Positions 8,483-45,037 of a stretch of 64,000 bases of DNA are shown here, piece by piece. The notes under the pieces were generated by a model. That model was not told the origin of the DNA. It searched no databases and saw only the letters and a program-made list of their open reading frames with translations. The stretch's first letter is position 1; each line of letters opens with the position of its first letter. Source of the stretch: Thermoplasmata archaeon. Its GTDB lineage: Archaea; Thermoplasmatota; E2; JACPAO01; JAHFTW01. The translations under genes and the position numbers were made by a program. The stretch lies in the NCBI GenBank assembly GCA_034667725.1, contig JAXDQS010000010.1:423171-487170 (forward strand), read 5' to 3'.

Positions 8483-8842
8483 ATGCCCTTGCTTCACCGG
8501 AGTGAAGTGGCCCGGCTCCCCGTCCGCAACGACTGCATCTGCACCGTCGGCGGCCTCATCGACCTCGTCGGCAAGAAGTGGACGATGTGCATCATCGTGA
8601 CCCTGGGCAACCGCCCCGCCATCCGCTTCAACGAGCTGCGCGACACCTTGGTCGGCATCAGCCCGCGCACGCTGTCCGAGACCCTCAAGGCGCTGGAGTC
8701 GGAAGGCCTGGTGCGGCGCGAGGCGTTCGCCGCCATCCCGCCCCGCGTCGAGTACCGGCTCACCGACGAAGGCGCCAGGCTGCGCGAGGCGGTGCGGCCG
8801 CTGATGGAGTATGCGGCAGGAAGGCCTGGGGCAGTCTGCTGA
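8483..8842 (+). CDS. HxlR/DUF24-family winged-helix regulator
   Basis: LVGKKWTMCI, RFNELR, ISPRTLSETLKALE, PPRVEYRLT; N-terminal DCIC. Confidence 0.9.
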   Translation: MPLLHRSEVARLPVRNDCICTVGGLIDLVGKKWTMCIIVTLGNRPAIRFNELRDTLVGISPRTLSETLKALESEGLVRREAFAAIPPRVEYRLTDEGARLREAVRPLMEYAAGRPGAVC

Positions 8843-8846
8843 ACGG

Positions 8847-8999
8847 GCGTGGAGGGTCGCGCGTCGGCGCGCGCCGAACGCGAAGCGGAGGCGATGGGTG
8901 GGTGGCTCGCGGAGCGAAAGCCACCCGCCAAGGGGTCCTAGGGGCGAAGCCCCTAGATGGGGTGCGCGGCTGGAAGGCCGGGGGCCGTCTGCTGAACGG
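8847..8999 (+). repeat. GNA-hairpin element followed by a recoded duplicate of the HxlR 3' end
   Basis: Hairpins GGGTGGCT..AGCCACCC and CTAGGGGCGAAGCCCCTAG; 8966-8999 matches 8813-8846 with 3 synonymous changes. Confidence 0.85.
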
Positions 9000-9010
9000 T
9001 CTGCTGACGA

Positions 9011-11787: not shown

Positions 11788-13008
11788 TCAGTCCACGTAG
11801 CCCGAGCTTCCCTTCGGCCCCAGCCACGACCCGTGGTAGCCCGCGTCCTCCGCCCCGACCGCCCACTTGGTGGCCAAGAGCGGCTTGAAGGTGTCCACCA
11901 TGACCGCCAGCTCGTCCGTCCGGTCATGCCCGAACGACGCCTCGTAGCGGCCGGGCTGCGGCGCGTGCGGGACGCCGGCGGGGTGCAGGCTCACGGAGGC
12001 GGGCCCGACGCCCTTGCGGCTGGTGAAGTTGCCCTCGACGTACCACAGCACCTCGTCGCAATCGACCGAGGAGTGCGGGTAGGGGCACGGGATCGCCTTC
12101 GGATGGTAGTCCACCTTGCGGGGCACGAACGAGCAGACCACGAAGGCGCCGCGGCCGCCGAGGAAGGTGGTGTGCACCGGTGGCGGCAAGTGGACGAGGC
12201 CGGTCTTGGGCTGGTAGTCGCGGATGCTGAACGCCACCGGGTACATGGCGCCGTCCCAGCCGACCACGTCGAACGGATGATGCGGCAGCACGCGCACGGT
12301 GTAGCGGTCGCCCCGCTTCAGGGTCACGCGCACGCGGCCCTGCTCGTCCATGTCTTCCTGGTTCGGCTCCGACAGCATCGACGGCCGCCGGAAGTCGCGG
12401 TGGCAGTACGGCGCGTCCATGGTGAGCTGCCCCGCCGGGTTGCGGAAGTTGGATGGGATGTCGAGCCCCGTGCGGCACTCCATCACCATGACGTGGGACC
12501 GCCCCGACAGCCGCAGCCGATGGATGAGCCCGCGCGGGATCCAGACGTAGTCGTGCCGCCGCACCTCCAGCGTGCCCAGCTCCGAGTCGAGCGTGCCGGC
12601 CCCTTCATGCAGGAACAGCAGCAGGTCGCCGTCGCCGTTCTGGAGCAGCCCCGAGTCCTGGATGGTGGGCTCGCTGGTGCCGATGCGGACGTCGTCGTTG
12701 CCGCACAGCACCCGCAACGACTCCCACAGCCGCCCAGCGCCGGCGACACCTGGGGCGCGGAAATGGCGCCGGCGCAACAGCGGGTCGGGGACCGGCTCGA
12801 AGGTGTCGCGCACCGGGCTGGGCTCCTGGGCCACCTCGCGCGCCGGGTTGTTCTTGCGGTACGCGATGGCGTAGGAGCCGTCGAAGCCCTTGCGGGTCAT
12901 GCAGTGCTCGTAGTAGACGGGGCAGCCGTCGACGTCGTCGCCCTTGGCCCGGGGATGCTGGATGTGGTGCTTCGCCGGCACGGACCCGAGGCGGTGGTAG
13001 TCGAGCAT
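11788..13008 (-). CDS. hmgA: Homogentisate 1,2-dioxygenase
   Basis: HHPFDVVGWDG, VHLPPPVH, PYPHSSVDCDE, HPAGVPHAP, ELAVMVDTF. Confidence 0.92.
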   Translation of the reverse strand: MLDYHRLGSVPAKHHIQHPRAKGDDVDGCPVYYEHCMTRKGFDGSYAIAYRKNNPAREVAQEPSPVRDTFEPVPDPLLRRRHFRAPGVAGAGRLWESLRVLCGNDDVRIGTSEPTIQDSGLLQNGDGDLLLFLHEGAGTLDSELGTLEVRRHDYVWIPRGLIHRLRLSGRSHVMVMECRTGLDIPSNFRNPAGQLTMDAPYCHRDFRRPSMLSEPNQEDMDEQGRVRVTLKRGDRYTVRVLPHHPFDVVGWDGAMYPVAFSIRDYQPKTGLVHLPPPVHTTFLGGRGAFVVCSFVPRKVDYHPKAIPCPYPHSSVDCDEVLWYVEGNFTSRKGVGPASVSLHPAGVPHAPQPGRYEASFGHDRTDELAVMVDTFKPLLATKWAVGAEDAGYHGSWLGPKGSSGYVD

Positions 13009-37450: not shown

Positions 37451-37657
37451 TCAAAGGGCGCGCAGGCAGGCCAAGGCGTCGTCGAGGGTCCGCAAGAGCC
37501 CCATCGGCGAGCCGGCGGCGGCGTCGAGGACCAGGGTCGTGCCCTCGCACCGGCTCTTGATGTGCCCGCCGTCGTCCGGCGCCAAGGCGGCCTGCGCGCG
37601 GCGGGCGGCCGCGGCCGACGGGAACGCGATCCGCAGCGTCCCTTGGTTGGCGCTCAC
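37451..37657 (-). CDS. pcc1: KEOPS subunit Pcc1
   Basis: ALAPD, LLRTLDDAL; GTGA overlap with the DHH gene; conserved rps15-DHH-pcc1 order. Confidence 0.75.
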   Translation of the reverse strand: MSANQGTLRIAFPSAAAARRAQAALAPDDGGHIKSRCEGTTLVLDAAAGSPMGLLRTLDDALACLRAL

Positions 37658-39015
37658 GCGGCCTCCAGGAAGCCCTGCGCCACCAGGGCGTCGTCGAGCG
37701 CGGCCAAGAACGCGTCGACGTCGGGCGCCGGCACGACGGCGCCGGCCGCGACCGGGTGGCCGCCGCCCTCCCGCCCCACCGCGCGCGCGGCGGCCTGGCA
37801 CGCCCGCCCGAGGTCGAGGCCGCGGCGCACGTGGCCCTCCAGCGCCCGCGTCGAGGCCTGCACCAAGCCGTCGGGGCGCTGGGCGAGGACCGCGAGCGGC
37901 AGCTCCTGGCGCACGATGTGGGTCATGCCGATGCCCGCCACCATGCCGGTGTAGTCGGCCCGCTCGGTCCACGCCACCTGGACGGCCCGCAGCCGCTTGG
38001 TGCCTTGGTCGCGCAGGACTCGGAGGCCGGCGACCAGCTTCTGCTTGTAGGCGGCGAAGCAGGCGGCGGCGTCGCGCCTGGCCGCGGCGTCGCCCATCAG
38101 GTAGGCGATGCCTGTGGCGGCCTGCCCCTCCCGGCCGCAGGCGTCCACGATGCGGAAGGCGTGGCGGAGGCTGACGCCGAGCCTGGCGCCGTGGTCGGTG
38201 GGGACGACCAAGGCCGGCACGAGGTGATGCTGGCCGGCAGCCATCAGGCGGAGCGCAAGGCCGGACACGAGCCGGTTCTGGGCCTCGCGGTCGAGGTCCT
38301 CGACCTCCAGGCCCGGGTCGATGCGCTGCGCCTCCAGCCAGGCGCGCGCGGCGGCCGGCTGGTCGAGGCCCGGGATGCCGATGCGGCTGTGCGCGATGGC
38401 CTCCGCCAGGTCGGCGCCGACCAGGTGGGACTGGGGCACGGCGACGACGTGGCCGGCGGCGCGGGCGCGCTCCAGCAGCTCCAGGTTCCACCCCTGCCAG
38501 GAGGGCGTGTGCTGCCAGTCGCCGATGGCGCCCGCAAGTGCTGCCGGTGCCCACGCCAGCGCCTTGTCGCCCGCGAGCGCCAGCGCGAGGGCGGCCGCGG
38601 TGGTGGCGGCGGAGGCGTCGCGCGACCCGTCGAGGCCGGCGGCGCGCGGGTTCAGCAGCACCACCATGGGGTCCGTGGGCGGCTCGCCGACCAGGTTGTG
38701 GTGGTCCACCACCAGCACGGGCCGGCCGGCGCGGGCGGGGTCGGCGGCGAGGTCCGCGAGGTGGCTGGTGCCCTTGTCGAGCAGCATCACGGCGTCGCAG
38801 CCCGGCTCCCACAGCGCCGCGTAGGCCGCCGCCGTCTTGTCGCGGCTGGCCCGGATGGTGAACCGCTGCCCCACGGCCAAGAGGGCCTGGGCGGCGACGG
38901 CGGCGGCCCCGAGGCCGTCCGCGTCCGTGTCGCACGCCAGCAGCCACCGCGTGCCCGCGGGGCGGGACCGCACCAGGGCCGCGGCGCGGGCGGCGGCCTC
39001 CTGGAAACGGTCCAT
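37654..39015 (-). CDS. DHH-family phosphoesterase (RecJ-like)
   Basis: DTDADG, LLDKG, VDHH, GAIGD, GGGHPVAAG. Confidence 0.88.
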   Translation of the reverse strand: MDRFQEAAARAAALVRSRPAGTRWLLACDTDADGLGAAAVAAQALLAVGQRFTIRASRDKTAAAYAALWEPGCDAVMLLDKGTSHLADLAADPARAGRPVLVVDHHNLVGEPPTDPMVVLLNPRAAGLDGSRDASAATTAAALALALAGDKALAWAPAALAGAIGDWQHTPSWQGWNLELLERARAAGHVVAVPQSHLVGADLAEAIAHSRIGIPGLDQPAAARAWLEAQRIDPGLEVEDLDREAQNRLVSGLALRLMAAGQHHLVPALVVPTDHGARLGVSLRHAFRIVDACGREGQAATGIAYLMGDAAARRDAAACFAAYKQKLVAGLRVLRDQGTKRLRAVQVAWTERADYTGMVAGIGMTHIVRQELPLAVLAQRPDGLVQASTRALEGHVRRGLDLGRACQAAARAVGREGGGHPVAAGAVVPAPDVDAFLAALDDALVAQGFLEAA

Positions 39016-39039: not shown

Positions 39040-39225
39040 TTAACCCTGGAACCCGAGCGCCTTGTGGGCGCCGTCGCAGTAGGGCTTGCTTGCGCTGTGG
39101 CCGCAGCGGCACAACGCCCCGTTCTCGGCGGTGACGACCGAGCCGTCCGGCATCTGCACCTGCACGGGCAGGCGGATCAGCAGCGGTCCGTTGGCGAGCA
39201 TCTGGAGGTGCGGCGTGTCCGGCAC
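39040..39225 (-). CDS. CDGSH iron-sulfur domain protein
   Basis: NGPLL and LCRCGHSASKPYCDGAH. Confidence 0.85.
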   Translation of the reverse strand: MPDTPHLQMLANGPLLIRLPVQVQMPDGSVVTAENGALCRCGHSASKPYCDGAHKALGFQG

Positions 39226-39299
39226 GAAGGACGCCAGGGCGGGGGTGGTCTTGACGAGGCCGCTTATGGGAGGGCTACCGGTCAAGCGCAGGCAACCAA

Positions 39300-39352
39300 G
39301 AAAACGCAAGAAGGGAGGGAGAAGGAAGGGAGGAGGAGCGGGCTTGCGCCCA
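39300..39352 (-). terminator. Hairpin plus pyrimidine tract downstream of rps15 and its duplicated end
   Basis: GTGGGCGCAAGCCCGC followed by a C/T run on the minus strand. Confidence 0.45.
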
Positions 39353-39359
39353 CGACGGT

Positions 39360-39462
39360 TCAGTCGACTAGCAGGCGGGCGCCGGCGCAGTGGGACGGGC
39401 CGGCCTGCGGCCGAGCCCTATGCACCCTTCCGCCGCCCGGGCCGTGGGCGACCTCGCTTCGC
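39360..39462 (-). repeat. GNA-hairpin element followed by a recoded duplicate of the rps15 3' end
   Basis: 39360-39388 matches 39463-39491 with 2 synonymous changes. Confidence 0.85.
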
Positions 39463-39894
39463 TCAGTCGACCAGCAGCCGGGCGCCGGCGCGGGTGTAAT
39501 TCCACGCCTCGGGCAGCTCGCCGCGCGACTGGTAGTACTTGGCGAGGCCGCGGATGCGGGCCTCCATCAGCTCCAGGCCGCGCAGGTTGTGCAGGTCGCG
39601 CGAGTTGCCGGCCAGGTGCTCCTGGAGGTGGATGGCGCGCTGGACCAGGTTCTGCAGGTCCTGGGGCAGCTTGCCGGAGATGCCGGCGTCGCGCATGATC
39701 TGGACGATCTTCTTGCCGGTGAGCTCCTGGACCGACGGGATGCCGTAGGAGTCGCGCAGGATGAGGCCGATGACGGCCGGCTGGCGGCCCTGCTTGGCCA
39801 ACTCCACGACCTTCGCCTCGGCCTCGCGGGGCAGCATGGGGACCCAGGACGGGGCGTTCTCGCGGACGGGCTTCGAGCTGGCGTGGCCGGACAT
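39463..39894 (-). CDS. rps15: 30S ribosomal protein S15 (uS15, S15P/S13e)
   Basis: IGLILRDSYGIP, LPQDL, DLHNLRGLELMEARIRGLAKYY. Confidence 0.95.
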   Translation of the reverse strand: MSGHASSKPVRENAPSWVPMLPREAEAKVVELAKQGRQPAVIGLILRDSYGIPSVQELTGKKIVQIMRDAGISGKLPQDLQNLVQRAIHLQEHLAGNSRDLHNLRGLELMEARIRGLAKYYQSRGELPEAWNYTRAGARLLVD

Positions 39895-41801: not shown

Positions 41802-43499
41802 ATGTTGGGCCACAATCCTTTCCTGGAGGACCCCGTGCCCGCCGCAATGGCGCGCGCCCAGCCCGAGCAGCATGTCATCCCGTTCAACGAGCAGCTCCTG
41901 AAGCCCGCGGCCACGCCGGCCCCTTCCAAGGCCGAAGCCGGGCTGGTGCGCCCCCTTGCCGCGAAGCCGCGCGCCAGGCCGGCCACCGTCCCCAAGCCCC
42001 GTCCCCCACGCGCCGTCTTCGTCGTCCACGGCATGGGCCAGCAGGTCCCGTTCGAGACCCTCGACCTGGTCTACCAAGGCCTGCAGCACGAGGAGACCGC
42101 CCGCGGCGACGGCCCGCCCGCCCTACTGACGCCCAAGCCGGTCGAGGAGGTCATCGCGGGCACCAAGGTGCGGCGCCTCGAGGTCACGCTGGCCGCCGGC
42201 ACGCCCCAGGAACGCCAAGTCCACCTCTACGAGGGCTACTGGGCGCCGCTCACCGAGGGCCGCGTGACCCTGCGCGACGTCGTGGCGTTCCTGGCAAGCG
42301 GCGCCGGCAACGGCCTCCGCAACGCCTTCGGGCGGCGGCAGAAATGGCGGTTCGACAAGTTCCGCCAACCCTGGGTCTTCGGCCTGCCGCTCGTCCAACT
42401 GCTGGTGACGTCGCTGGCGCTCGCCAGCCTGCTCGGGCTCGCGGCCGCGTCCACCGCCACCTTCGCCGCCGCCGTCACCGGCACCGGCATGCCCTTGGGC
42501 ATCGTCTCGGACCTGACCTGGCTGGCCGCCTTCATCCTGGCCCCCGCCATCGCCATGGCCGTCCTCATGGGCGCCTCCTCCGCCGGCAAGCGCCTGGGAT
42601 GGCGCAAGCGCCTGGCGCGGCGGGTCCGCGTCGCCGAGGACAACCGGCGGCCGATGCCGCGCGTGCCCGCCCTCGCCCTCGTGCTCGACGCGCTCGGGAT
42701 GCTGGCGCTCCTGGCCACCGTGCTGGCGGCCGCCGCCGTCCCCTTCCTGGCGGCCTGGGCGGCCCTGTCCTGGGCCAAGGGCGCCTCCTGGCTTCCCATG
42801 CTCGACATCCGGGCCTCGTTCGTCGTCTGGGGCCTCCTCGTCCTGCTGGTGGCCGTCGCCCGCCGCGTCCTCGTCCAGACCCTCGGCGACGTCGCCGCCT
42901 TCGTCAACACCCACAAGCTCGACCGCTTCAACGAGCTGCGCGACGAGATCAAGCGCACCGTCCGCAAGGTCGCGATGGCCGTCTACGACGCCAAGGACGC
43001 CCAAGGCGGGCCCCGCTACGACGCGGTCTGCATCATGGGCCACAGCCTCGGCAGCGTCGTCGCCTACAGCACCCTCAACGACCTCGTCAACGAGGACGAC
43101 GACGTCGAAGGCCAGTCGCGCGGCGTTCTCGCCCGCACCCCGCTTCTGCTGACCTTCGGGTCGCCGCTTGCCAAGACCTCCTTCATCTACGGCCTCCAGC
43201 GCAGCAAGACCAGCGCCACCCGCGAGGCGCTCGCCGGCCTCGTGCAGCCCCTCATCCAGAAGTACGACTACCGCACCATGGAGTGGATCAACCTGCACGC
43301 CCGCGCCGACATCATCAGCGGCCGGCTCCGCCCCGAGTACGACGACGAGGAGGCCGCCTTGGACCACGAGAAGGAAGGCAAGGTCGCCAAGCGCGTCCAG
43401 GACCTGCGCGACCCGCACGCCACCACCCCGCTGCTCGCCCACAACGAATACTGGCGCAACCCGCTGCTGTGGCGGGAGCTGCGCAGCCGCCTGGTTTGA
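41802..43499 (+). CDS. Alpha/beta-hydrolase with inserted TM helices
   Basis: VHGMGQQ, GHSLG, TFGSPL, terminal HNEYW; central hydrophobic block. Confidence 0.75.
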   Translation: MLGHNPFLEDPVPAAMARAQPEQHVIPFNEQLLKPAATPAPSKAEAGLVRPLAAKPRARPATVPKPRPPRAVFVVHGMGQQVPFETLDLVYQGLQHEETARGDGPPALLTPKPVEEVIAGTKVRRLEVTLAAGTPQERQVHLYEGYWAPLTEGRVTLRDVVAFLASGAGNGLRNAFGRRQKWRFDKFRQPWVFGLPLVQLLVTSLALASLLGLAAASTATFAAAVTGTGMPLGIVSDLTWLAAFILAPAIAMAVLMGASSAGKRLGWRKRLARRVRVAEDNRRPMPRVPALALVLDALGMLALLATVLAAAAVPFLAAWAALSWAKGASWLPMLDIRASFVVWGLLVLLVAVARRVLVQTLGDVAAFVNTHKLDRFNELRDEIKRTVRKVAMAVYDAKDAQGGPRYDAVCIMGHSLGSVVAYSTLNDLVNEDDDVEGQSRGVLARTPLLLTFGSPLAKTSFIYGLQRSKTSATREALAGLVQPLIQKYDYRTMEWINLHARADIISGRLRPEYDDEEAALDHEKEGKVAKRVQDLRDPHATTPLLAHNEYWRNPLLWRELRSRLV

Positions 43500-43813
43500 G
43501 GCGGACCCGCTTCATGCCGGCAGCGGCCCCCCACGGCGCTGCGCGCCGCGGGGCCCGCTTCGCGGCGCGCGCTCGCTGCGGCGCCGGGCATGGCGGGACG
43601 TGCCTCAATGCGCCAAGGAAGCCTCGCTGCGCTCGGCTTCACTTCTCGGGCACTTTGAGGCGGACCCGCTTCATGCCCGCCGCTGCCCCCCACGGCGCTG
43701 CGCGCCGCGGGGTCCGCTTCGCTTGCGCCCGCTTCGCGGCGCGCGCTCGCTGCCGCTTCGGTGCTGTCGCGCGCGCCTTCGGTGCCGAGGTCGCGCGCTC
43801 GCTGCGCTCGCGG
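43495..43813 (-). repeat. Two-unit array: hairpin element plus recoded copy of the 3' end of gene 43814-45037
   Basis: 43639-43686 encodes AAAGMKRVRLKVPEK*; 43495-43527 encodes AAAGMKRVRLK; each is preceded by CGGCGCGCAGCGCCG-TGGGGG. Confidence 0.85.
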
Positions 43814-45037
43814 CTACTTCTCGGGGACCTTCAAGCGGACGCGCTTCATCCCCGAAGCGGCCTTCTGCCACCCCTCAACACGCTTGGCCGTGATCTTGGT
43901 GCCCAGCACGTTGGTCTCGAGGCTGTCGAGGTAGGCGTTGACCTGGTCGGCGACGGCCTCGCCGCTGCGCTTCTTCAGTTCGGCGATGCCTTGGATGCCG
44001 GCGCGGGCCATGGCCTCGGCGTACTGCTTGCCGACGCCCTTGACCTTGATGAGCTCGGCCATGGACTTCCATTGCTCGACGGTCTTGACGGGGACCTGCA
44101 TGCGGCGGGCGAGGTCTTCGGCCTCCTCGTAGGCGAGGCGGGCGGTGGTCTCGATGCCCAGGTCGCGCAGCTTCTGGCCGTAGATGCGGCCGATGCCTTC
44201 GATCTCCTCGACCTCGTGGGTGTCGCCGGCGTAGTCGTAGTAGGCGCGGGTCTCGCTGGCGGCCTTGGGCTTGCGGGCGCCGGCGATGGTGGCGTCCAGT
44301 TCCTGGAGGTAGGCGCGGGAGCCGCCCGTGGTCGTGGTGACCTCGACGGTCTGGGTGGTGGTGGAGCTCGACTCGCTGGACTCGGCCATGAGCTCCTGGG
44401 CGGCGGACTCCTCGGGGAACAGGCGGGCGCGCAGGTGCTCCGGGATCTTCTTGGGGTCGACCTCGGTCTTGGGCTTCTGGCTGTTCTTGATGGGCAATTC
44501 CTTCTTCTGGGCCTCGGGCGGGCCGGCGATGAGGATGCGCATCTTGAGCTGGGTGCCCTGGTTGTCGATCGGGATGTAGCTGTTGGTGTAGACCGCGGAC
44601 TCGACGGTGCGGGGGAAGACGTAGGGGACGACCTTGGTCTTGCGGTCCTTCTTCTCCCAGGCGCGGTACATGTGCGGGATGGTGGGGAGGTTGTAGACCA
44701 CGATGTCGGGGCCCTTGCCAAGGTTGTCGGGCTCGACCAGGCTGTTCTCGTAGGCCTCGAGGCGGGCGCGCTCGGCGGCCAGGGCGTCCTCGTCGGGGTT
44801 GAGGGCGGCGCGGCGCTTGCGCTCCTCGGAGCTGCGCACCAGCAGGAGCAGGAACAGGACGATGACGACCAGCAGCAGGATGACGGCCGTCACCAGCACC
44901 CACAGGTTCACTTCCTTGAGGAACGGGATGCCGGGGTCGTTTTGCGACTTGGCGTAGAGGAGGAACAGGAAACCGAGGAAGGTCAGCACGGCAAGCGTGA
45001 ACAGGACAGTGCCAAAGATGCGCTTGCCGCTTGCCAT
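43814..45037 (-). CDS. Membrane-anchored protein with C-terminal helix-hairpin-helix (DUF4332-like) domain
   Basis: Two TMs; EEIEGIG..KLRDLGI; KVKGVGKQYAE. Confidence 0.75.
   Translation of the reverse strand: MASGKRIFGTVLFTLAVLTFLGFLFLLYAKSQNDPGIPFLKEVNLWVLVTAVILLLVVIVLFLLLLVRSSEERKRRAALNPDEDALAAERARLEAYENSLVEPDNLGKGPDIVVYNLPTIPHMYRAWEKKDRKTKVVPYVFPRTVESAVYTNSYIPIDNQGTQLKMRILIAGPPEAQKKELPIKNSQKPKTEVDPKKIPEHLRARLFPEESAAQELMAESSESSSTTTQTVEVTTTTGGSRAYLQELDATIAGARKPKAASETRAYYDYAGDTHEVEEIEGIGRIYGQKLRDLGIETTARLAYEEAEDLARRMQVPVKTVEQWKSMAELIKVKGVGKQYAEAMARAGIQGIAELKKRSGEAVADQVNAYLDSLETNVLGTKITAKRVEGWQKAASGMKRVRLKVPEK

Follow-up and report, generated by a model that had tools for sequence, protein, structure and literature searches.

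The locus studied here raises the question why the end of rps15, the gene for the archaeal ribosomal protein uS15, is present twice, with a short ORF-less stretch between the two copies. The gene is located in the window, i.e., the whole stretch of 64,000 nucleotides that was analysed, which derives from a MAG of an uncultured soil archaeon. An earlier note on this DNA had read the locus as an insertion that displaced the old gene end, and we report that this first reading is supported by the rps15 alleles of related genomes. We also report that the rps15 locus has the same layout as a number of other gene ends in the same genome, and we weigh the different ways in which such duplicated ends might have arisen.

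Methods

The source MAG of the window is designated G000 (2.3 Mb, 71% GC, 90% complete), related genomes are designated G0xx, and metagenome or extra loci Lxxx. The relatives are Thermoplasmatota/Thermoplasmata MAGs that come from several independent projects. About 45 rps15 alleles were examined, comprising those of 30 relatives, six metagenome contigs, family genomes covered by a pattern scan, and 14 contigs obtained via exact S15 proteins. The copy of the gene end that belongs to the intact gene is referred to as copy 1 and the distal one as copy 2.

Duplicated gene ends were grouped into one class on the basis of a stop-containing direct repeat at an intact gene with the distal copy at the ancestral 3' flank, an ORF-less spacer of 45-220 nt, a loop of the GCGMAGCGARG type that follows copy 1 at 0-53 nt, a GC hairpin that precedes copy 2 by 2-12 nt, and synonymous differences between the copies.

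The duplicated rps15 end and its surroundings

The rps15 product matches Ribosomal_S13_N (PF08069, 1.9e-15) and Ribosomal_S15 (PF00312, 2.3e-12) in Pfam, and an orthologue of the gene was present in 41/41 relatives. That its end is duplicated with two silent changes, as had been claimed in the earlier note, was borne out by a repeat search, which returned a 29-nt direct repeat with 27 of the 29 positions identical (93%) and a spacing of 103. On the minus strand the rps15 ORF ends with GCC GGC GCC CGG CTG CTG GTC GAC TGA (copy 1), and 103 nt downstream the sequence reads GCC GGC GCC CGC CTG CTA GTC GAC TGA (copy 2); both differences (2/2) are synonymous, one in an Arg codon (CGG/CGC) and the other in a Leu codon (CTG/CTA). 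The repeat is well beyond chance: the last 24 nt of rps15 in G000 have a downstream match of 22/24, and the best match elsewhere is at most 18/24 (1.5-6 kb of flank, 30 loci). The offset (103 nt) is not divisible by three; the two copies are thus in different frames, and stop-codon read-through does not read copy 2. Use of copy 2 through read-through or frameshifting was also rejected on the offsets in five genomes (103, 101, 122, 79 and 81 nt), which have no common frame. The parts of the locus are listed in Table 1.

Table 1. Features of the rps15 region, in window coordinates
Feature	Position	Strand	Basis or remark
rps15 (archaeal uS15), 143 aa, intact	39463..39894	-	ORF list and Pfam
Copy 1, working gene end; eight full codons (AGARLLVD) plus TGA in the 29-nt repeat	39463..39491	-	Direct repeat; in frame with rps15
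Spacer, 74 nt, ORF-less (putative cassette body), single copy in the genome	39389..39462	-	No second copy in G000; collinear homologue in G002
GCGAAGCGAGG loop motif, directly after the stop; contains a GCGAAGC mini-hairpin	39452..39462	-	Sequence
Spacer (cassette) 3' hairpin GGGCTCGGCC-GCA-GGCCGGCCC, ends 8 nt before copy 2	39397..39418	-	Centroid folds
Copy 2, displaced older end, offset 103 nt, out of frame with copy 1	39360..39388	-	Direct repeat; abuts ancestral hairpin and tract
Hairpin GGGC-GCAA-GCCC after copy 2, where the rps15 3' hairpin stands ancestrally	39340..39351	-	Positional equivalent in empty alleles
C/T-rich tract ending TTTTCTT	about 39298..39337	-	Conserved between rps15 and the following gene at nearly all loci of the family
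CDGSH iron-sulfur domain ORF	39040..39309	-	PF09360, 7.1e-16; between rps15 and the RecJ-like gene
RecJ-like DHH/DHHA1 gene	37654..39015	-	Pfam; conserved neighbour downstream of rps15

The spacer opens with the loop motif at the stop codon and holds a GC hairpin, both as originally described, and GGCC-GCA-GGCC is the core of this longer hairpin. In the predicted RNA fold GCGAAGCGAGG forms the loop of a long imperfect hairpin that pairs copy 1 with the spacer, a fold no better than those of shuffled sequences, and for the rps15 region of this 71% GC genome no gain in stability over shuffles was detected (z = -0.04 as DNA and -0.9 as RNA). There is no ORF in the 74-nt insert, no terminal inverted repeats were found at it, and an Rfam search of the spacer gave chance-level matches only and no known RNA. 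A second copy of the spacer was sought in G000 down to word size 7 and none was found; the reading of the insert as a multi-copy MITE was rejected on this uniqueness. We also considered a reverse-complement ("mirror") copy of the gene end within the spacer as an address for such inserts. This candidate was rejected, the match being non-significant in five rps15 alleles (z = 0.2-1.7) and strongly significant at just one of 15 sites.

The terminator proposed to follow copy 2 stands as far as its elements are concerned, i.e., the hairpin and the C/T tract are present, whereas a scan for bacterial-type terminators gave none after copy 2. The C/T tract likely serves in archaeal termination, as a promoter, or as both. 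Most members of the family have just 50-80 nt between rps15 and the RecJ-like gene, namely a small GC hairpin followed by the pyrimidine tract, and the synteny of the two genes is kept in 22 loci. The CDGSH ORF is present at this position only in G000; in all relatives examined the RecJ-like gene follows directly after rps15.

Filled and empty rps15 alleles in related genomes

A 29-31 nt repeat of the gene's own end is present in six genomes, three of genus g1 (G000, G002 and G004) and three of genus g4 (G015, G024 and G043), with the second copy 52-95 nt downstream of the stop codon. Three more alleles (G017 and G042 of genus g6, and the metagenome contig L045) have an 11-nt repeat (TGGTCGACTRA) across 47-51 nt. 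In the remaining alleles the stop is followed immediately by the hairpin and tract, or by other inserts. Empty alleles, with hairpin and tract right after the stop, are those of G001, G009, G011, G013, G020, G021, G023 and others, and close relatives of filled genomes are among them: G001 and G009 stand next to G002, G044 belongs to g4 and G041 to g6. Had no relative carried an empty allele, the insertion proposed in the earlier note would have been contradicted; this check came out in its favour. In all filled alleles the ancestral hairpin and tract directly follow copy 2, in keeping with the proposed insertion that moved the original end and its 3' signals downstream.

The filled state recurs in three genera and with at least five spacer types, and the same rps15 structure is present in independently assembled MAGs of different projects. 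All rps15 inserts are 45-92 nt in length. A long element between distant copies was also considered and rejected: it was detected in none of the about 45 alleles, and the extra matches in a pattern scan of all 32 family genomes were unrelated genes ending in or containing ARLLVD. No polymorphism between filled and empty states was detected within species, the three species covered by 24, 7 and 4 contigs being uniformly empty, and no cassette movement was observed in the alleles compared. The collections searched contain no strain-level relative of G000 and no exact or near-identical S15 elsewhere.

Copy 1 and copy 2 are identical in G002 and G043. Copy 2 no longer has a stop codon in G004 (GAA) or G024 (CAA), which would be expected if it is an old end left stranded. 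For rps15 alone, the five alleles together have five synonymous and one non-synonymous differences plus two lost stops, which is a weak silent-change signal.

One further locus, L103 (JGI Ga0597037_0006900), has about 190 nt of stacked GC hairpins between the rps15 stop and the pyrimidine tract and no recognisable second end; this stack may be an old cassette, the displaced end of which has decayed or been lost.

The rps15 spacers and their hairpins

Comparison of the spacers revealed that those of G000 and G002 are collinear homologues (z = 4), with one compensatory stem change in the hairpin, and that G002 and G004 have only the first 15 nt in common. The spacers of G024 and G043 are also homologous (z = 19), the hairpin stem being kept and the loop changed, and those of G015, the g6 pair and L045 are unrelated to both the G000/G002 and the G024/G043 types. 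Homologous spacers of type A are present in two separate subclades of genus g1 in a two-gene tree. All five rps15 spacer types have a GC hairpin that ends 2-8 nt short of copy 2, and the left boundary of the repeat is alike (29-31 nt) for three unrelated types.

In G000 and G002 the 3' part of the spacer copies the hairpin that natively follows the rps15 stop in the empty alleles (z = 5.3 and 3.7, respectively; for the G000 hairpin, z = 5.3 against G011 and 2.6 against G009). This suggests that the inserted unit brings with it both a gene end and a terminator-type hairpin. In G024 and G043, which have a common spacer, the repeats differ between the two genomes at four synonymous sites and both copies carry the variant of their own genome; the copies thus either exchange sequence or are renewed in each lineage.

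Another repeat family is made up of palindromes about 115-120 nt long in which CTGTGGAATCT / CACGGATT words are frequent and which often form tandem arrays. Outside the window this family is present in G000 on contig C10 (about 119000-131100 and 12544-12620), contig C3 (about 451455) and contigs C5 and C7. Such units are also located just after the rps15 stop, with no duplication of the gene end, in several congeners (rps15-recJ spacers L007, L011-L014 and L046-L049).

Duplicated gene ends elsewhere in the genome

Through the opening motif of the rps15 spacer, other sites in G000 with the same layout were reached. A scan of the ends of long ORFs with high GC3 in this genome gave a dozen genes, including those for an aminoacyl-tRNA synthetase, an acyl-CoA dehydrogenase and an M20 peptidase, where the last 20-95 nt including the stop are repeated across a hairpin-rich spacer of 55-220 nt. 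The right edge of the repeat is always within a few nt of the stop codon and the left edge varies; across the class the repeat is 11-95 nt and hence not of fixed length. Direct repeats of at least 16 nt flank 12 of the 20 genomic copies of the GAGCGMAGCGAR loop, which is related to GCGAAGCGAGG, and six of the ten copies of the GGGGCGWAGCCCC hairpin, compared with 27 of 300 random positions (9%). The motifs keep a fixed polarity: copy 1 is followed by the loop at a distance of 0-53 nt, and the hairpin precedes copy 2 by 2-12 nt.

The codon differences between the copies at 12 gene ends in G000 are 23 synonymous to one non-synonymous, and 22 of the 25 nucleotide differences in the class are at third positions; the silent ones include TTG/CTC (Leu) and AGG/CGG (Arg), and the copies diverge by up to about 14%. 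The neutral expectation is 24.5% synonymous, and the observed value was reached in none of 20,000 simulations. These numbers reject a drifting target-site duplication and argue that both copies have been shaped as working ends, i.e., that the two ends diverged as functional gene ends and not by decay.

About 11 unrelated sites in G000, including the 3' end of a tRNA gene, hold an element of ~115 nt with three to four hairpins and compensatory changes in the stems, referred to as type I. A nucleotide profile built from six copies of it (nhmmer --max) matched none of the rps15 spacers, neither that of G000 nor those of the relatives, at E <= 10. The rps15 spacers are therefore not sequence members of the type-I element, and rps15 belongs to the class by its architecture and short motifs, with spacer lineages of its own: the loop motif is located 0 nt after the stop, a GNA-triloop hairpin ends 8 nt before copy 2, and the two differences are both synonymous.

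Two further gene-end duplications were noted within the window. At about 8812-9000 (contig C10:431982-432170) a 34-44 nt repeat with silent differences only surrounds a type-I element, and at about 43494-43860 (contig C10:466664 onward) a 69-nt repeat has an array-like arrangement. On contig C3:223686-223840 a type-I element is flanked by two copies of a tRNA 3' end (44 nt, from the T-arm GGTTCAAATCC to the end of the 3' trailer), which indicates that RNA genes and protein genes are targeted alike.

The class-II aminoacyl-tRNA synthetase gene has a duplicated end in G000 (contig C3:515512-515690) and also in G015 and G012. In G015 (L075, G015:C121) the 42-nt copy is identical and a GAGCGCAGCGAA loop is located right after the stop; in G012 (L078, G012:C5:11900-12550) the last 37 codons are copied (query residues 164-200), ending about 490 nt downstream of the stop. 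The synonymous sites in the synthetase gene ends of 16 relatives are too diverged to polarise copy 1 versus copy 2.

A search for mobilising enzymes in G000 (90% complete) gave no match to Y1 (IS200-like/RAYT) transposases (PF01797), Cas1 (PF01867), IS110, TnpB or Piwi/Argonaute. For tyrosine recombinases there was one weak match to PF00589, about 435 kb away on the same contig.

Origin of the duplicated ends

On the basis of these comparisons, the duplication is probably the footprint of a small, ORF-less and hairpin-forming cassette at the end of rps15, which replaces the gene end and would be moved by recombination within the repeat. On this reading the locus consists of the rps15 body, the working end (copy 1), the 74-nt hairpin body, the displaced old end (copy 2), the ancestral hairpin and the pyrimidine tract. 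As the cassette supplies a functional gene end, the essential rps15 gene stays intact, and in G000 and G002 the cassette body would carry its own terminator-type hairpin upstream of copy 2. Together with its 3' signals, the former end would be displaced downstream, in G000 by 103 nt, and then be left to decay.

Movement might occur by reversible recombination inside the gene-end repeat, of the Campbell type, of the ends-in type, or as homing-like gap repair, in which case the gene body and copy 2 could act as the two homology arms; the agents might be recombination functions of the host or an enzyme acting in trans. The copy of the gene end would then be the address of the cassette. With each round of excision and re-entry both copies would be drawn anew from working gene ends, and such re-sampling would explain the silent differences, the identical copies in G002 and G043, and the codon variants shared within a genome. 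A circular or linear intermediate of 100-250 bp is conceivable, as is the acquisition of new gene-end addresses. Recombination in the repeat fits best with the variable repeat length, the silent-only differences, the copies that are identical or co-vary within some genomes, the scarless empty sites of relatives, the repeatedly hit conserved genes and the lack of an enzyme gene.

Two alternatives involve no mobile element. The locus might be a scar of recombination between lineages, where the rps15 end and 3' flank of a related archaeon were joined homologously on the gene side and illegitimately about 30 nt upstream of the resident stop, leaving a foreign end followed by the resident one. Two ends that differ silently, as orthologues do, are consistent with this, as are the likeness of the 3' part of the G000 and G002 spacers to the native rps15 terminator hairpin and the homology of the spacer to the resident downstream flank on contig C2+63833 (z = 17.7) and contig C10+211377 (z = 3.2). 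This homology is, however, absent at 13 of 15 sites, and random scars would not be expected to have common hairpin motifs with a fixed polarity and distance to copy 2, to place one structured element of ~115 nt at about 11 unrelated targets, or to strike the same genes repeatedly in different genera; moreover, the identical copies in G002 and G043 would require a donor of the same lineage. We consider such a scar unlikely. Simple tandem duplication, with the spacer being the resident downstream flank, was rejected, this likeness being significant at only two of 15 sites and not at rps15 in G000. A more elaborate version is that the gene end and terminator hairpin were duplicated locally through template switching at the hairpin, that extra hairpins were added later, and that gene conversion keeps the copies alike. 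It would account for the native-like hairpin in the 3' part of the spacer, for copies that are identical (G002, G043) or co-vary within a genome (G024, G043), and for a spacer that is single-copy at rps15. Yet in four of five rps15 alleles the spacer is unlike the sequence after copy 2 of the same genome, synonymous-only divergence of up to about 14% is predicted neither by drift nor by conversion, and a left boundary that is alike for three unrelated spacer types speaks against it, making this version quite improbable in our judgement.

The other alternatives invoke known types of mobile DNA. The two copies might be att remnants of an integrase-driven element (of the e14/icd type, or an integrase-less CIME) that integrated at the 3' end of rps15 and was almost wholly deleted. 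In favour of this, the classic e14 pattern at icd/icdC comprises a new 3' end, the element itself and an old end that is left stranded and differs silently (PMC13626634), and the genome does have one tyrosine recombinase match. That match is single and weak in a genome where at least 12 genes and one tRNA are affected, though, and neither the absence of a long element from about 45 rps15 alleles with their 45-92 nt inserts nor a repeat that varies between 11 and 95 nt is in line with att sites; this origin is very improbable. A classical non-autonomous transposon (MITE) or Cas1-type integration, with a long target-site duplication that has since drifted, would give a short structured insert between direct repeats and could leave identical copies as in G002 and G043. 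Against it are the variable repeat length, the lack of terminal inverted repeats, the ratio of 23:1 in favour of synonymous changes where drift predicts 24.5%, and the lack of matches to Cas1, Y1, IS110 and TnpB, and we find it hardly credible. None of these rivals accounts for the motif polarity and the silent-only divergence together.

Likeness to known systems

Short GC-rich extragenic hairpins just after stop codons, with structure conserved more than sequence, are known from REP/REPIN sequences with their RAYT transposases and from integron attC sites. REPs and attC sites are not known to be accompanied by a duplication of the neighbouring gene end, unlike the rps15 cassette, and G000 has no detectable Y1/RAYT gene.

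Closer parallels are elements that replace gene ends. The WHO elements of yeasts at FBA1 (Coughlan et al. 2020, eLife; PMC7282813) replace the 3' end of a conserved housekeeping gene by a new working end; the old end is displaced downstream, decays, and serves as a second homology arm, and repeated events lead to stacks of old ends. The replacement 3' end and the displaced old end are common to both systems, whereas WHO elements are kb-sized units that encode a homing endonuclease and carry FBA1 fragments of about 400 bp (PMC7282813), compared with 74 nt without an ORF, a 29-nt repeat and many target genes in the present case. In fungal mitochondria, mORFs with a carried C-terminus (Allomyces atp6; Glomus atp6, atp9, cox2 and nad3) provide an in-frame foreign C-terminus and leave the native one stranded downstream, the divergence of the ends is largely silent, and horizontal transfer has been inferred (PMC3630166). 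These elements are organellar and eukaryotic and contain an endonuclease ORF of the LAGLIDADG or GIY-YIG type of about 1 kb (PMC3630166), in contrast to the ORF-less rps15 insert. Prophage e14 in icd of Escherichia coli, with the pseudogene icdC (Hill, Gray and Brody 1989, as described in PMC13626634), brings an alternative 3' end for an essential gene; the stranded end is reported to differ mostly at synonymous sites, and excision to re-form a working chimeric gene. At 15 kb, e14 is a prophage that encodes its integrase and uses a single att site, while the inserts in G000 are tiny, contain no integrase and have many targets.

The rps15 feature is thus best filed as an ORF-less variant of gene-end-replacing elements, the closest known systems (e14/icd, mORFs and WHO elements) all encoding an enzyme. 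A description of an ORF-less counterpart was not found in the open-access literature searched.

Implications

All elements known to replace a 3' end and leave the old one stranded encode a nuclease or integrase of their own. At rps15, a core ribosomal protein gene, and at a dozen other genes this footprint comes from inserts that have no room for a coding sequence, and it recurs in several genera. As a tentative proposal, somewhat short of an even chance in our view, ORF-less mini-cassettes of 50-220 nt could represent previously undescribed mobile DNA, with the gene-end copy that they carry directing each of them to the final 10-30 codons of a conserved gene. They would enter and leave by recombination there, with host functions or an enzyme in trans, and would replace the ends and terminators of essential genes harmlessly while spreading among related Thermoplasmatota. 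With both filled and empty alleles available in sequenced relatives, rps15 is a convenient test case. Gene-end duplications can mislead gene callers, predictions of 3'-UTRs and terminators, and analyses that take silent variation at gene ends as vertical. If the cassettes are mobile, target homology carried along with a few hairpins would suffice for a selfish element to colonise essential genes safely, and the cassettes would be a steady source of new 3' ends and terminators.
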